Numbered from the stretch's first letter, positions 9,738 through 61,510 are shown. The stretch: 64,000 nt of DNA from Minisyncoccales bacterium (GCA_049642725.1 JBARPC010000027.1:1010-65009), one strand, 5' to 3'. Notes: a model not told the origin generated them from the letters alone. Program-made: numbers and translations.

Positions 9738-10820
9738 TTAATTTATTCTTAAATTAGCATTAACTTTAATGTTTTTCCAGTTTTTAGCTTTGTTTTTATG
9801 AAAATAAGCAGTTATACCTATCATTGCAGCATTATCAGTACAGAATTTAGAATCAGGAATTAAAAATAAGGAATTAGGAATTTCTTTTTTAATTTTTTCT
9901 TTAAACTGTTTTTTCAGCTTTTCATTAGCTGTAACACCGCCGCCAAGAATAATTGTTTTTACTTTATAATCTTTTGCTGCTTTAATAGTTTTTTTAATTA
10001 AAACATCAATTACTGCTTGCTGAATTTCTTTGCACATTGCTTGGATGTATTGTTTTGTTTTTTGCTGCCCGATTTTATTGGGCGAGCATCGTTCCTTCAG
10101 AGCGGGTTTTTCTTTTTTTACTGCATAAAGGACAGCGGTTTTCAGTCCTGAAAAACTAAAATCATAATCGTTTGAGTAAATCATCGGACGGGGAAGTGTA
10201 ATTTTGGATTTTGGATTTCGGATTTCCATTGCTGCTAGAGCAGCGATGGCTGGTCCTCCGGGATACCCAAGTCCTAAAATTCTGGCTGTTTTGTCAAAGC
10301 ATTCTCCAGCAGCATCATCTCTTGTTTCACCTAAAATTTTGTATTTTCCGATATTTTTCATCAAAATCAATTGAGTATGCCCGCCGCTTACAACCAAGCA
10401 AATCGCCGGCAGATATTTTTGAGAATTGAGAATTGAGAATTGAAAATTAATTAATATATGACTCTCAATATGATTTACTGGTATAATTTTTAGATTCCAC
10501 AAACGAGCTAAGGCCTTGGCAAAATTCACACCTGTCCACAAACAAGGTTCTAAACCAGGACCAGTGGTTACGGCGATCAAATCAATTTTCGGTTTGATAA
10601 AGTTTTTTATTTCTGCTTTTTTTAAAGCTTTTTTTAAAACAGGCAAAAGATTTTTCTGATGCTCTCTTTTTGCCATTGCCGGGTATACTCCTCCATATTT
10701 TTTATGAATTTCTATCTGCGACGAAACAATATTACTTAATATTTTTGCTTTTTGCTTTTTTATATTTAATATACTGATACAGGTATCATCACAAGATGTT
10801 TCAATGGCTAAGATAATCAT
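9738..10820 (-). CDS. tsaD: tRNA N6-adenosine threonylcarbamoyltransferase TsaD
   Basis: IETSCDDT, HIESH, GGHTQL, DDAAGECFDK, FSFSGLKT and CTDNAAMIG motifs. Contains two in-frame heptamer-repeat segments. Confidence 0.93.
   Translation of the reverse strand: MIILAIETSCDDTCISILNIKKQKAKILSNIVSSQIEIHKKYGGVYPAMAKREHQKNLLPVLKKALKKAEIKNFIKPKIDLIAVTTGPGLEPCLWTGVNFAKALARLWNLKIIPVNHIESHILINFQFSILNSQKYLPAICLVVSGGHTQLILMKNIGKYKILGETRDDAAGECFDKTARILGLGYPGGPAIAALAAMEIRNPKSKITLPRPMIYSNDYDFSFSGLKTAVLYAVKKEKPALKERCSPNKIGQQKTKQYIQAMCKEIQQAVIDVLIKKTIKAAKDYKVKTIILGGGVTANEKLKKQFKEKIKKEIPNSLFLIPDSKFCTDNAAMIGITAYFHKNKAKNWKNIKVNANLRIN
10201..10228 (-). repeat. Tandem heptamer array (ATTTTGG ATTTTGG ATTTCGG ATTTCCA) inside tsaD
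   Basis: Read directly. Encodes EIRNPKSKI on the coding strand. Confidence 0.9.
10421..10448 (-). repeat. Tandem heptamer array (GAGAATT x3 + GAAAATT) inside tsaD
   Basis: Read directly. On the coding strand it reads AATTTTC AATTCTC AATTCTC AATTCTC (NFQFSILNSQ). Confidence 0.9.
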
Positions 10821-13316: not shown

Positions 13317-14453
13317 ATGAAGAAGCAATTTGGACAATTTTTTACTACAAATTCTGATTATATTTTGCAAGGATTTGAAAAATTTGTAAAAAACAAAAAA
13401 ATTATTGATCCCTTCGCAGGAAATCAGGATTTAATCAAATGGGCTAAGAAAAACACCTGTAAAAAAATTATAGGATTTGATTGTGATAAAAGATATGTTG
13501 ATAATAAAAAAGTTTTTTTAGATGATTCTATAAATTTTCCTAAAAAATATAAATTTGTCTGCACAAATCCACCGTATTTGCACAAAAATAAAGCAGATAA
13601 AAAGACTAAACAAAAATTTTTTTCAGGAACTAATTCTCATTTTGAAGATCTATATCAAATTTCTATTTTTTCGATTCTTAATTGCGAAGAAGGTATTTTA
13701 ATTATTCCACTTAATTTTTTATCAGCCGAAAATTCTAAAGAAATAAGAAATTTATTTTTTGAAAAATTTGAAATAATAAAATTAAATATTTTTTCTGAAC
13801 AAGTATTTGAAGATACAACTTATAATGTAATTTCTTTTTATTTTAGAAAGAAATTACATTATACAGAAAAAAATAAAATTATCGCTACGATTCTGCCAGA
13901 AAAAAAACAAATTTCTTTTATTATTGAAAAAAAGTTTGGCTGGCAATTTGGTGGTAATTTTTTAAATAAAATAAAAAACGCTAAAAATTATTTAGGTATT
14001 TTTCGTTTAACCGAGAATTTTTTACAATCTGGTGAATATGAAATAGAAATGGCGCTCCAGAATATAAAAGATAAAAGAAATTTTCGCGTAAGTCAAAATA
14101 TAAAAAGAATAATAGAGAAAAATATTTTGTTTTTAAGAGCAATTGACAGTAAAAACGGAAAGAAAATTCAACTTGAAGATATAAGAAAATATAATATCTC
14201 TGGACTCGTGGGCAAAAGCACTTCTAGAAATATGGCACATTTAATTTTTGAGCAAGAAGTTCCAATTAAAGAACAAGAAACATTGATGCAAAAATTTAAC
14301 CAAGAATTGAACAGAAACAGGCAAAAATATTTTTCTTTTTTTCTTACGAATTTTCGTGATAATAATCGCAAAAGAATTTCTTTTAATCTGGCCTATAAAT
14401 TTTTGAATTATCTTTATTTAGTAAAACATGCAAAGCAATCAACATTATTTTAA
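13317..14453 (+). CDS. Type II N6-adenine DNA methyltransferase (NPPY, gamma-like motif order)
   Basis: N-terminal GQFFT, SAM-binding-like DPFAGNQDL, then the catalytic TNPPYL. Overlaps the downstream nuclease gene by 26 nt. Confidence 0.75.
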   Translation: MKKQFGQFFTTNSDYILQGFEKFVKNKKIIDPFAGNQDLIKWAKKNTCKKIIGFDCDKRYVDNKKVFLDDSINFPKKYKFVCTNPPYLHKNKADKKTKQKFFSGTNSHFEDLYQISIFSILNCEEGILIIPLNFLSAENSKEIRNLFFEKFEIIKLNIFSEQVFEDTTYNVISFYFRKKLHYTEKNKIIATILPEKKQISFIIEKKFGWQFGGNFLNKIKNAKNYLGIFRLTENFLQSGEYEIEMALQNIKDKRNFRVSQNIKRIIEKNILFLRAIDSKNGKKIQLEDIRKYNISGLVGKSTSRNMAHLIFEQEVPIKEQETLMQKFNQELNRNRQKYFSFFLTNFRDNNRKRISFNLAYKFLNYLYLVKHAKQSTLF

Positions 14454-35224: not shown

Positions 35225-35228
35225 ATAT

Positions 35229-35295
35229 CCCCCACCACTTTTGAATCCGTTGTGCAGATAGTATGCTAAGAGCATATGTTCAAAAGTGGTGGGGG
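35229..35295. other. Strong nested hairpin immediately after recA (17-bp perfect arms)
   Basis: CCCCCACCACTTTTGAA ... TTCAAAAGTGGTGGGGG with an inner TATGCT-aag-AGCATA hairpin. No flanking T-run on either strand. Confidence 0.8.
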
Positions 35296-35331
35296 AAAAG
35301 GTCGGAGCAACATTATCTATATTTTATTTTT

Positions 35332-47788: not shown

Positions 47789-49921
47789 ATGAAATTTAAA
47801 ATATTATTATTTTTAATTTTATTGATAGGGATAGCTGTTTTTGGTTTTATTCTTTTTCAAGAAACAAAAGAAATCAGTCAAAGTAATGAGCATGAATTCA
47901 AAGAGGAGATATTTGATTCAACAAAAGAGGAAAAAGAAGAAATAGCTTCTCCTTTTGAACCAGCTAACTTAGATTGGGAAGAGATTATTCCTAATGCTCC
48001 TTGGTCAAAAAGAGATGCCCAGACAGGAGTTGTTTTCAAAGACAAAATATGGGTGATGGGCGGAATTTTGAGCGGGCCAGGAGATTATAGCCAAAGGGTT
48101 CATAAAAACGATGTTTGGGCTTCGGAAGACGGTGAGAATTGGGAACTAATTACAGATAAAGCTTCTTGGGGACCAAGGAGAGGCCATACCTCAGTGGTTT
48201 TTGATAATAAAATCTGGGTGATGGGAGGATGGGAAAAGAGCAGTGAATCTTATAAAAATGATGTTTGGTATTCAGAAGACGGAAAAAATTGGGTTGAAGC
48301 CACTTCTTCAGCAGAATGGGATTCAAGAATAGGTCATGCTGCAGTGGTTTTTAATAATAAGATCTGGGTGATGGGAGGAAGGGATTCGCGTTGGCAATTT
48401 AAAAATGATGTATGGTATTCAGAAGACGGAAAAAATTGGATTGAAGTTAATCGTCAATCTGCTTGGCCAGGAATATATGACCATACTCTGATTGTTTTTA
48501 AGGATAGAATATGGCTGATAGGAGGAGTGCTTTGCGGGGTCAATGGTTGGGAACCAGGAAAAAATGATGTCTGGTCTTCAACAAATGGCAAAGATTGGGA
48601 ATTAATTACCGATAAAGCTCCATGGAAAGGAAGGCATGGGCATGCAGTTGTTGTTTATAAAGACAAAATGTGGATTGTTGGCGGTTGGGATGGTATTTGC
48701 TGCGGTATAAACGATGTTTGGTATTCAGAGGATGGTTTAAATTGGGAAAAAACTCTTAACGATAGTCCTTGGGAAGGAAGAGAGGATCACAATGTTCTTG
48801 TTTTTAAGGACAAGATGTGGGTTATGGCAGGAATGATAACTGGCAGAACTCGAAAAAACGATGTTTGGTGTTCAGTTCAATCCACAACAACAGAAAAAAG
48901 GAACGAGAAAGAAAAAGAGATTGATAAAGAAAAAGAAATAATTTCAAATCCACAAGAAATAGTTTTGGAAACTCCTTTAAATAATTCATTTCTTTCTCCT
49001 AAATTGGTCAGCAGTTATCAAGTTTCCGGCCAGCCTGAGTTTGTCTTTGTTCTTAAAAATTATGCTTATTTGGCTGACGGCTTTTCTGGTCTTCATATTT
49101 TTGATGTTTTTCAGCCCGAGAACCCAGAATTAATAGGCGATTACAATACCCCTGGCTATAGCGAAGGGGTTTTTGTTTCAGGCAATTTTGCTTATGTGTC
49201 TGACAAAGACGGAGGTTTTTTAATCTTAGATATTTCTGAGCCGACGGAACCTAAATTAGTTAGTAGATATCAGCCCATTTCAGCCGAAGGTGTTTTTGTT
49301 AAAGACGATTATGCTTATTTGGCTTATGCCTGGTGGGGTTTGAAGATTTTTGATGTTTCAGATTGTTATTCTCCGGAGTTGGTTTGGAGTCAAAAATTAT
49401 CAGAAGAAACCGAAGCTGTTTTTGTTTCTGGTAATTATCTTTTTTTAGCCAAAGGCCAAAACGGAGGCCTTCAAATTTTCAATATTTCAAATCCCAAATC
49501 TCCCCAATTAGTTAGTACTTATAAAACGCCAGGTTATGCTGAAAGTATTTTTGTTAAAGATAATTATCTCTTTTTAGCTGGAGATACTGCTGGTTTTTAT
49601 ATTTTTAATATTTCCAATCCTATTCAGCCAATTCTGATTAGCAAGGTTAAAACGCCAGGTTCAGTTGAGAGCGTTTTTGTTTCCGGAGATTATGCTTTTT
49701 TAGCTTTAGGTAAATCTGGTTTAGGTATAGTTGATATTTCTGATCCCCAAAATCCAATACTTACTGATACCTTAAAGCTCTCTGGTTTTGCTGAGAGAAT
49801 TTTTGTTTCTGGAAATTATATCTATCTTGCTGTTAAAGATTTGAGCAAAGGGAATTTAGCTTTCCAAAACATTTCAGTGGAGAATGCTGGCTTTCTTGAG
49901 ATTGTTAAAATCAACAAATAA
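47789..49921 (+). CDS. Surface protein with an N-terminal Kelch-type beta-propeller and C-terminal LVIVD repeats
   Basis: Six repeats of ...KNDVWYSEDGKNW...W..R.GH..VVF.NKIWVMGG, then about 7 repeats of GxAxxVFVSGNYAYLA...GLxIFDIS-P..P.L. Confidence 0.7.
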   Translation: MKFKILLFLILLIGIAVFGFILFQETKEISQSNEHEFKEEIFDSTKEEKEEIASPFEPANLDWEEIIPNAPWSKRDAQTGVVFKDKIWVMGGILSGPGDYSQRVHKNDVWASEDGENWELITDKASWGPRRGHTSVVFDNKIWVMGGWEKSSESYKNDVWYSEDGKNWVEATSSAEWDSRIGHAAVVFNNKIWVMGGRDSRWQFKNDVWYSEDGKNWIEVNRQSAWPGIYDHTLIVFKDRIWLIGGVLCGVNGWEPGKNDVWSSTNGKDWELITDKAPWKGRHGHAVVVYKDKMWIVGGWDGICCGINDVWYSEDGLNWEKTLNDSPWEGREDHNVLVFKDKMWVMAGMITGRTRKNDVWCSVQSTTTEKRNEKEKEIDKEKEIISNPQEIVLETPLNNSFLSPKLVSSYQVSGQPEFVFVLKNYAYLADGFSGLHIFDVFQPENPELIGDYNTPGYSEGVFVSGNFAYVSDKDGGFLILDISEPTEPKLVSRYQPISAEGVFVKDDYAYLAYAWWGLKIFDVSDCYSPELVWSQKLSEETEAVFVSGNYLFLAKGQNGGLQIFNISNPKSPQLVSTYKTPGYAESIFVKDNYLFLAGDTAGFYIFNISNPIQPILISKVKTPGSVESVFVSGDYAFLALGKSGLGIVDISDPQNPILTDTLKLSGFAERIFVSGNYIYLAVKDLSKGNLAFQNISVENAGFLEIVKINK

Positions 49922-49950
49922 ATGAAGCGAGAACTGTTCTCGCTTCATTT
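49921..49950. terminator. Hairpin between convergent genes (14-bp arms)
   Basis: AATGAAGCGAGAAC-tg-GTTCTCGCTTCATT. Confidence 0.6.
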
Positions 49951-49953
49951 ATT

Positions 49954-51829: not shown

Positions 51830-51857
51830 TTGACAAAAATTTTGTTTTGTTTAAGAT
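51830..51857 (+). promoter_or_regulatory. Sigma70-like promoter upstream of groES
   Basis: TTGACA, 16 nt, TAAGAT. No CIRCE inverted repeat was seen. Confidence 0.4.
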
Positions 51858-51872
51858 AGAGAAGTAATCAAA

Positions 51873-51900
51873 AATTTTCAATTTTCAATTTTCAATTTTC
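51873..51900 (+). repeat. Tandem heptamer array (AATTTTC)x4 in the groES 5' region
   Basis: Read directly. Same heptamer family as the tsaD array at 10421..10448. Confidence 0.9.
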
Positions 51901-51953
51901 AATGAAATCCCAACTTTCAATGGAAATTAGAAATTGGTTGAAATTACATTACT

Positions 51954-52247
51954 ATGGAAATCAAACCATTAACAGATCATATTCTTATTGAGCCAATGAA
52001 AAAGGAAGAAAAGACCAAGGCAGGTATTTTGCTTCCAGAAACAGCAGATAAAGAGAGTCCTGAGCAAGGCAAGGTTATTGCCGTTGGTCCTGGCAAGAAA
52101 AATAGTTCTGGCAATATAGTTGCCATAACAGCTATTAAGCCGGGAGATAGGGTTTTGTTTACAAAATACGGTCCAAATGAGATAAAAATAGATGACAAAG
52201 AATATTTAATCGCCAAAGAAGAAGATATATTAGCTATTCTAGAATAA
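51954..52247 (+). CDS. groES: Co-chaperonin GroES
   Basis: IKPLTDHILIEP...AGILLPE...GKVIAVGPG.... Confidence 0.95.
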   Translation: MEIKPLTDHILIEPMKKEEKTKAGILLPETADKESPEQGKVIAVGPGKKNSSGNIVAITAIKPGDRVLFTKYGPNEIKIDDKEYLIAKEEDILAILE

Positions 52248-52259
52248 ATTTATAGCTTA

Positions 52260-52412
52260 GAAAACCAAATTTTTCAAATTCTTACGGTTTGCTCGGATTT
52301 CCTTCTTTCCTCGCGCTTTACCCTAAAGGGCTCCGACGCGTCTCGGAAAGCAGAAAATCCTCGCCACCTTATTTTTAATTCCTGCGCGTCAGAATTTAAA
52401 AAATTGGTTTTT
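52260..52412. repeat. GC-rich core closed by ~22-bp AT-rich inverted arms, filling the groES-groEL spacer
   Basis: GAAAACCAAATTTTTCAAATTCT ... AGAATTTAAAAAATTGGTTTTT with an imperfect internal palindrome. The arms are similar to those of the element at 6210..6285. Confidence 0.7.
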
Positions 52413-52415
52413 TAG

Positions 52416-54068
<1,653 letters not shown>

Positions 54069-56149: not shown

Positions 56150-56189
56150 GGAGGTTCAACCTCCAATGGAGGTTGAACCTCCTAAAATT
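56150..56189 (+). promoter_or_regulatory. Hairpin/mini-ORF module, copy 2 (duplicated hairpin, upstream of the bPH_2 gene)
   Basis: GGAGGTTCAACCTCC followed by ATGGAGGTTGAACCTCCTAAAATT. Confidence 0.7.
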
Positions 56190-61399: not shown

Positions 61400-61412
61400 T
61401 CGCCTCGCCGAA

Positions 61413-61440
61413 GTTCCGCCATTTCGCGAAATGGCGGAAC
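61413..61440. repeat. 28-bp perfect GC-rich palindrome in the tRNA-Ser 3' flank
   Basis: GTTCCGCCATTTCGCGAAATGGCGGAAC, flanked by GCCGAA / GAAGGC. Confidence 0.85.
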
Positions 61441-61510
61441 GAAGGCGGGTTTTGCCAGAATTCGGCTCGGCTACGGCGAGATAAATCCGCTCATAAAAAA
61501 TAATTTAGTT

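Follow-up and report, generated by a model that had tools for sequence, protein, structure and literature searches.

A nested palindromic repeat of Parcubacteria occupies the groES-groEL spacer in a Minisyncoccales genome

The groESL locus

The window (the whole stretch of DNA that was analysed, 64,000 nt long) originates from a MAG of the Minisyncoccales (Parcubacteria/CPR) and has an overall GC content of 33.7%. A GroES with 100% identity to the encoded protein (P0001) has been recorded from such a MAG. Its groESL operon is listed with the associated features in Table 1. Apart from the spacer between the two genes, the operon is an ordinary one of the sigma-70 type. Judging from its sequence, the promoter-like site upstream of groES is likely the single promoter of a groES-element-groEL transcript. 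L004, the closest relative, has almost the same sequence in this promoter region, and a promoter and terminator scan of the spacer revealed no promoter-like and no terminator-like site inside it.

The first-pass annotation had noted that no CIRCE operator is visible upstream of groES, and this agrees with our search for the CIRCE consensus (TTAGCACTC-N9-GAGTGCTAA), which gave 0 matches in the window with up to three mismatches allowed. The heptamer array that it had described as (AATTTTC)x4 was also found, with 4.4 units at 51873-51903 in the groES 5' UTR. In L004 (9870-9930) a TTAACATYT-like short repeat stands in place of this array next to the nearly identical promoter. AATTTCT-type heptamer repeats also fill the short groES-groEL spacers of L017, L030, L043 and L050. 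Such repeats may be A/U-rich translation-initiation or operator repeats.

Table 1. Features of the groESL locus and of a related hairpin elsewhere in the window
Feature	Position	Strand	Evidence or remark
Second hairpin, same outer-arm type, different GC-rich centre	6200-6290	+	Pattern matches; 17.9 bits with covariance model R1
Promoter-like site TTGACA-16-TAAGAT	51830-51857	+	Upstream of groES; scan, 10/12 consensus positions
groES	51954-52247	+	ORF, 97 aa; homologues carry Cpn10 / PF00166
groES-groEL spacer	52248-52424	+	177 nt; essentially all inserted DNA relative to the 1-2 nt of sister taxa
Left outer flank and AT-rich outer arm (TTATAGCTTAGAAAACCAAATTTTTCAAATTCTTACG)	52250-52286	+	Inverted-repeat pairs I1, I3
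Inner palindromic element, the family member proper	52291-52364	+	Covariance model R1, 84.7 bits, E = 2e-18
Conserved 34-nt core TCGCGCTTTACCC-TAAA-GGGCTCCGACGCGTCTC	52311-52344	+	Metagenome pattern scan
Asymmetric segment, 22 nt, without left-side partner	52365-52386	+	Unpaired in predicted fold
Right AT-rich outer arm (CGTCAGAATTTAAAAAATTGGTTTTTTA)	52387-52414	+	Inverted repeat, alignment
A-rich, mostly unpaired leader (GAAAAAGAAC)	52415-52424	+	Directly before groEL AUG; without Shine-Dalgarno-like sequence
groEL	52425-54068	+	Intact, 547 aa; Cpn60_TCP1

Structure of the spacer element

Nearly the whole 177-nt spacer is one imperfect hairpin. It had been annotated earlier as almost wholly one long imperfect palindrome, and the coordinates, the arms and the fold z-score are all in accordance with that description. 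Of the 153-bp extent assigned to it, the palindromic element itself is real; but the palindrome covers about 157 nt (52258-52414), and the insert comprises essentially the whole spacer. The outer inverted arms (52261-52286 and 52387-52412) are 26 nt long and 85% complementary, and can be extended to 52258-52414; the inner arms (52295-52310 and 52345-52360) are 16 nt long and 88% complementary. These internal inverted segments, together with a hairpin centre of more than 60% GC in 40-nt windows, correspond to the GC-rich core that had been recognized before. The predicted RNA fold energy is -44.9 kcal/mol for the plus strand and -54.6 kcal/mol for the minus strand. The fold z-score is -3.5 for both strands, and 0 of 200 dinucleotide shuffles folded as well.

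The element is a two-layer palindrome, in which AT-rich outer arms surround a 74-nt inner element. The inner element is ordered as GCTCG, a 16-nt arm, the 34-nt core, a second 16-nt arm and CTCGC; it is the sole significant match of R1 in the 64-kb window, where only this one copy was found even with the filters switched off. The core (TCGCGCTTTACCC-loop-GGGCTCCGACGCGNCTC) has two stems, a CGCG stem of 5 bp and a CCC/GGG stem, together with a conserved internal loop; its cap is variable, and CTC forms a bulge on the 3' side. Alignment showed that the asymmetric segment between the inner element and the right outer arm is missing from the related composite in L165. The exact match of 18 nt between this segment and window positions 9854-9871, where the sequence is AT-rich and coding, was regarded as fortuitous.

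The outer layer has the consensus TTATAGCTyvGAAAACnArATTTTT…AAAAAATTgGTTTTy. The left end of the left flank recurs at window positions 6200-6226 and in L004, and is near-identical in L165. Pattern TTATAGCTNNGAAAAC (14 specified bases) matches the window exactly only at 6200 and 52250, and pattern GAAAACMARATTTTTCA only at 6210 and 52260. As these two places are the only exact matches of two long patterns, the kinship between the arms of the 52260 element and those at 6210-6285, which the first-pass annotation had proposed, is considered real. Outside the window, the combination of these outer arms with the inner element is found again in L165, where it lies downstream of a hydrolase gene; in L211, the inner element is enclosed by arms related to them.

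The first groEL codons (52430-52444, AAAGCAAATTTTT) resemble the left outer arm at 52262-52274 (pair D5), and could pair with the right outer arm at 52397-52411 (pair I7). In AT-rich sequence such a similarity may arise by chance; alternatively, it may hint at a resemblance to the target. A switch in which the right outer arm pairs with groEL codons 3-7 instead (I7) was rejected, because the long hairpin dominates at all temperatures.

Several other hairpins were observed in the window. The 40-nt GC-rich hairpin GCTTGCCCCGTAGGAAGCCGAAGGCTTTCCTTCGGGGATT (1196-1235) is 100% identical to L045:6070-6109 in a different species, and from its sequence looks like another conserved hairpin repeat family. 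The palindrome GGAGGTTCAACCTCC-AAT-GGAGGTTGAACCTCC (56150-56182) has a second copy of 31 nt with 97% identity at 7755-7785. More long perfect or near-perfect intergenic palindromes lie at 35228-35296, 49917-49953, 13821-13863 and 61406-61447; those at 35228 and 49917 have perfect 18-nt arms, and the one at 49917 is conserved in L006.

Insertion history

The closest relative (GroES 95% identical), represented by GCA_030630045.1 and three other assemblies (L004-L007), contains the same element with 92-93% identity; the spacer is 177-179 nt long in these assemblies and in the window. The next relatives (L008-L014, GroES 84-86% identical) have spacers of 1-2 nt. The junction reads TAA-AT-ATG in L008 and L013, and TAA-T-ATG in L058. 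In the neighbour-joining tree of GroEL, short-spacer taxa surround the window and L004, and of the junction types in 80 related species the short, overlapping one is the most frequent. The insertion of the composite between the groES stop and the groEL start dates to the ancestor shared by this genome and GCA_030630045.1, and came after the relatives that keep TAA-AT-ATG had split off. Comparison of filled and empty sites revealed no clear target-site duplication. The direct GCTCG…CTCGC ends belong to the element, because they recur in most copies.

The inner element is identical at 72 of 74 positions (97%) between the window and L004, whereas the 4-fold sites of groEL are identical at 187 of 241 (77.6%; Fisher p = 2e-5). 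The outer parts are 88% (left) and 92% (right) identical. These comparisons are the chief indication that the window/L004 copy is not evolving as a neutral passenger; some constraint or exaptation is possible. The conservation might be due to selection, either on the mRNA hairpin or connected with the biology of the element itself, or to recombination that made the copy younger.

A repeat family across Parcubacteria

The 74-nt inner element belongs to a family that is spread across Parcubacteria (class Paceibacteria/Minisyncoccia of the CPR). A degenerate form of the core matched at least 120 metagenome stretches. Since the core was itself the search pattern, its invariance among these matches is partly ascertainment; the arms and the caps are outside that bias. 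In an alignment of 87 distinct copies, the arms differ between copies and yet pair within each of them. All 20 arm pairs have changes on both sides; 81% of the arm cells are paired, against about 41% for the whole structure with the partners slid, and double-change cells number 584, against 195 in shuffles. The caps also vary (TAAA, GCAAGTGGC, AGAGTACT, GTCAAAATCCGAC and others), with their self-complementarity kept.

The hosts are Parcubacteria, including Nealsonbacteria and Vogelbacteria; the closest named relatives of the host with a copy in PolA are Zambryskibacteria and Yanofskybacteria. The GC content of the loci ranges from 28 to 58%, and the copies are spread over dozens of different gene neighbourhoods. 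Individual genomes appear to have few copies for a classical repeat. Arm mismatches on the sense strand are mostly C.T (149) and A.C (96), with few G.T (32), and therefore better folding is expected of the opposite strand, as is the case in the window.

The element does not correspond to a known RNA family in Rfam. The Rfam 15 gathering scan of the whole window found only tRNAs, and the E-value scan around the element gave best scores of 12-19 bits, far below the cut-offs; in 10 other copies that were scanned, the element likewise had no match. Searches of the literature on CPR/Patescibacteria palindromic elements, and with the core sequence, did not retrieve a description of the family. A phage-borne origin was rejected, because 2.9 million viral contigs contain no copies of the family. 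The genes between paired copies (L211 and L153) are housekeeping genes only, with neither a transposase nor an autonomous IS partner among them, and clustering of 456 neighbouring ORFs revealed no transposase-like cluster beside the copies.

Genomic contexts of the copies

Among the matches listed, 35 of 130 copies are located inside long ORFs that read through them. The host proteins include PolA, RNase HII, LeuRS, MnmA, MetAP, UvrC, RpoC, Mfd, DnaG, DprA and IleRS; MiaA and a glycosyltransferase contain copies in the opposite orientation. According to Pfam, most of these copies lie between domains, including those in PolA, UvrC, LeuRS, DnaG, Mfd and DprA. The element is read in all three frames (SRFTLKGSDA…, RALP…GLRRDS and LALNPLYGGSDAS), and the copies in the frame where the TAAA cap would be a TAA stop have other caps instead. 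PolA orthologues were found both with and without the encoded peptide; at about 83% identity, they have either no insert or other recurrent inserts.

In the PolA sequences P0124-P0236, the linker after the LEFRTMGER motif also contains the recurrent peptide inserts NSAVLTRPGRAPTTD, EVFSAENLPDSRADALRD and GRSPDVPVGVPTDSVG, which are probably encoded by other in-frame repeat families. The LeuRS gene of L202 (5603-8779) and L106 contain an in-frame DUF559 (endonuclease-like) domain besides the palindromic element.

The intergenic copies mostly lie between co-directional genes and fill short gaps, the median distance being 10.5 nt on the side of the upstream stop and 12.5 nt on that of the following start. 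The orientation in which the sense strand is transcribed predominates both between genes (51:12) and inside ORFs (33:7). The copies typically fill tight stop/start junctions in co-orientation with transcription, and survive in-frame in housekeeping genes. The genes of L10 and L7/L12 are among the commonest neighbours. In L115, a weak L10_leader match (677-831; 27 bits, below the gathering score) lies directly upstream of the copy in the rplJ leader.

The groES-groEL junction as a recurrent site

R1 was used to scan the groESL neighbourhoods of about 80 species (1.22 Mb) together with the window, and the matches were confined to groES-groEL spacers. Of the metagenome matches listed, 13 of 122 are located in this spacer. 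Nine distinct variants occur at the junction (window/L004, L166, L021, L051, L040, L094, L097, L124 and L213), distributed over at least six GroEL clades (five on the tree, plus L124, which is too short for the tree), and each is nested among lineages with spacers of 1-8 nt. In L021, the copy is of the L166 type, and its cap harbours another copy in inverted orientation. The family has repeatedly landed, or been retained, at the groES-groEL junction.

Turnover at the junction can be followed in Vogelbacteria. L213, which groups with the Vogelbacteria L094 and L097 and shares 91% GroEL identity with L134, has a copy of a different subfamily with a partly degraded core stem. Vogelbacteria species with 85% and 70% GroEL identity have no copy and spacers of 6-7 nt; L216 (72% GroEL identity) has a 132-nt spacer hairpin that scores only 11.8 bits with R1. 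It follows from this pattern that gain, replacement, decay and loss all occur at the junction. The arm differences between L094 and L097 were considered as compensatory evolution of an orthologous copy; this explanation was down-weighted, since L213 carries a different subfamily at the same site and independent insertions are at least as likely.

Many other relatives have unrelated long hairpins in the groES-groEL spacer, some of which have further copies in the same locus (L026, L035 and L029). Long hairpins are about 3-fold enriched there (18 of 79 groES-groEL spacers against 71 of 800 other co-directional gaps, p = 5e-4). Nearly all of the long spacers of relatives are hairpins, mostly of unrelated sequence. 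The spacer of L049 (453-602) contains three perfect GC-rich hairpins built on AGCACTC…GAGTGCT, a CIRCE-like half-site that is not at a promoter. The spacers of L071 (763-973) and L026 (10292-10501) have in common a multi-hairpin GC-rich element of about 210 nt, of which an inverted copy with 78% identity lies at L026 399-536; this element is a candidate for a different, larger repeat or structured RNA.

Interpretation of the spacer element

The most probable explanation, to which we assign a probability of roughly 0.8, is that the spacer contains a palindromic repeat of the REP/RPE/MITE kind, nested and non-coding, in an otherwise ordinary groESL operon. Because the core recurs both between genes and in-frame inside them, the element is better described as an RPE/REP-like repeat that favours this junction than as a dedicated heat-shock switch. 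The idea of a selfish insertion tolerated in the operon, one of those put forward in the first-pass annotation, is supported by the empty junctions of 1-2 nt in the sister taxa and by the wide occurrence of the repeat.

The element would be mobilised in trans by an enzyme, of the host or unlinked, that recognises the conserved core hairpin and whose substrate is probably single-stranded nucleic acid. In the operon, it would be co-transcribed with groES and groEL, and the transcript is expected to form an imperfect stem of about 60 bp. The insertion destroyed the ancestral stop/start juxtaposition (TAA-AT-ATG), so that groEL must initiate independently. The ancestral termination-reinitiation coupling would then be abolished, with groEL starting from the short unpaired A-rich leader; uncoupling of groEL translation is plausible. 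Between the two cistrons, the hairpin may also influence the stability or the processing of the transcript.

In a more far-reaching reading, the core would be more than a selfish passenger: a sequence-specific module, namely a hairpin whose conserved internal loop lets a conserved factor of Parcubacteria read it as ssDNA or RNA. This factor would guide low-copy insertion or retention, and at groESL the module would have been recruited repeatedly. The sites of the module would be the stop/start junctions of highly expressed operons (groES-groEL and the rplJ/rplL region) and the linkers of nucleic-acid enzymes. Several observations leave room for it: the same core at loci of 28-58% GC, the repeated gain at one junction, the conservation of 97% against 78%, the orientation bias of 4-5:1, and the excess of A.C (96) over G.T (32) mismatches. 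This reading is tentative and rather unlikely, although it retains an appreciable chance. If true, it would define a new class of site-preferring palindromic elements with a host-level role, separating groEL from groES expression.

A somewhat smaller chance is given to an exapted cis-acting RNA of groESL, in which a hairpin of whatever origin has been kept and sets the GroES:GroEL ratio, through an exonuclease block, a processing site of RNase III or RNase J, or the uncoupling of translation. The conservation of the inner element relative to the 4-fold sites of groEL (p = 2e-5) agrees with such a role, as do the roughly 3-fold enrichment of long hairpins in this spacer among about 80 relatives and the many unrelated hairpins found there besides the recurrent family copies. 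Moreover, an effect on mRNA processing is known for the Correia and ERIC repeats (PMC10969869). However, the nearest sisters and most relatives are without the element, and spacers of 1-8 nt suffice for them. The junction copies also turn over and decay (such as the degraded core stem of L213 and the 11.8 bits of L216), and the same element is found in many unrelated contexts, coding sequence included.

A thermosensor-like control of groEL had also been suggested in the first-pass annotation. An RNA thermometer or heat-shock switch replacing CIRCE/HrcA, in which melting by heat frees groEL translation, would fit with the lack of CIRCE in the window and with the position of the element immediately upstream of groEL. 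A weak local stem at the AUG does loosen slightly between 10 and 55 °C (unpaired probability 0.54 to 0.79). Nevertheless, the AUG and its 10-nt leader are outside the element hairpin, which is predicted to stay paired from 10 to 55 °C (unpaired probability of the arms 0.12-0.19), and thus the design of an RNA thermometer is absent. There is also no Shine-Dalgarno sequence to sequester, the sister taxa manage without the element, and the same core occurs inside ORFs. The suggestion is not supported and is very improbable. Least probable of all is a partial intrinsic terminator or attenuator, by which groEL would be transcribed less than groES. The large size and the stability of the hairpin and the TTTTTT at the end of its 3' arm would agree with it, but the T-run is base-paired in the stem and followed by A-rich sequence, the spacer scan finds no terminator, and attenuation before groEL would be counter-productive because GroEL is needed in excess of GroES (established stoichiometry 14:7).

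Comparison with known palindromic repeats

The element is a palindromic repeat of Parcubacteria with a conserved hairpin core, found in the window in a composite form and at a favoured junction; the class as such is already known. It was grouped with the known palindromic repeats (REP, RPE and MITE), because its behaviour matches theirs. The closest parallels are RPE-1 and the shorter RPE-4 and RPE-6, which are also short palindromic repeats of small, host-dependent genomes. They occur both between genes and in-frame in housekeeping ORFs (replication/repair proteins and tRNA synthetases), with no associated transposase. The RPEs of Rickettsia insert in-frame in genes and add about 25-30 residues at tolerated positions (PMC10969869, PMC3733652). 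The Parcubacteria element likewise occupies many unrelated loci and tolerated in-frame positions, where it adds a similar number of residues; the likeness is one of behaviour. It differs in that its hosts are Parcubacteria/CPR and not Rickettsiales, the hairpin centre is conserved while the arms vary, it is read in three frames instead of giving one conserved peptide, and the copies per genome appear low.

REPs (GTAG/CGTC) are 20-40 bp long, with an unpaired head next to a stem of 8-9 bp and a loop of 4-5 nt (Di Nocera et al. 2013, PMC3733652); some of them are intragenic, notably in uvr genes, polA and tRNA synthetase genes (PMC3733652). Like the present element, they are G+C-rich hairpins that lie mostly between unidirectional genes and are probably transcribed, some copies being intragenic, and the CGTC REPs also have no dedicated transposase. 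REPs are high-copy, and those of the GTAG type have an associated RAYT transposase. This element is about 74 nt long and has a two-stem core with a conserved internal loop. It also falls outside the sequence definition of REPs, as CGTC is present only in the minus-strand internal loop (…CGCGTCGGAGCCC…), with no adjoining stem of 8-9 bp.

The MITEs embedded in operons (Correia/NEMIS, ERIC and Chunjie) are imperfect palindromes of 100-170 bp that fold in the mRNA, and sit in transcribed spacers without disrupting the operon, as this element does. The mRNA hairpins of Correia are associated with effects of RNase III, and those of ERIC with effects of RNase E (PMC10969869). The terminal inverted repeats of MITEs have their counterpart in the inverted arms of both layers, of which the inner arms co-vary among the 87 copies. 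Features of Correia, ERIC and Chunjie themselves are conserved terminal inverted repeats, target-site duplications (TA in Correia) and tens to hundreds of copies per genome. CIRCE/HrcA and the ROSE and fourU elements also place inverted repeats or hairpins beside chaperone genes; however, the present element lies between cistrons and not at the promoter, has no CIRCE consensus, and leaves the start codon free.

An odd-looking groESL operon can thus be explained without a new heat-shock switch. The repeated independent occupation of one junction, and a core that is conserved in genomes of very different composition, provide a handle on the spread of palindromic repeats that have no transposase and on their possible co-option by hosts for adjusting operon expression. 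A repeat family in ultra-small CPR bacteria that, like RPEs, enters the tightest intergenic junctions and, in-frame, essential genes also bears on gene calling, on the evolution of protein insertions in reduced genomes, and on metagenome assembly, where three independent Logan contigs are broken within the element. These contigs (L001-L003, from independent assemblies that encode exactly this GroEL) all start at window position 52341, inside the core, which is consistent with a break of the de Bruijn graph at a sequence repeated in the community.
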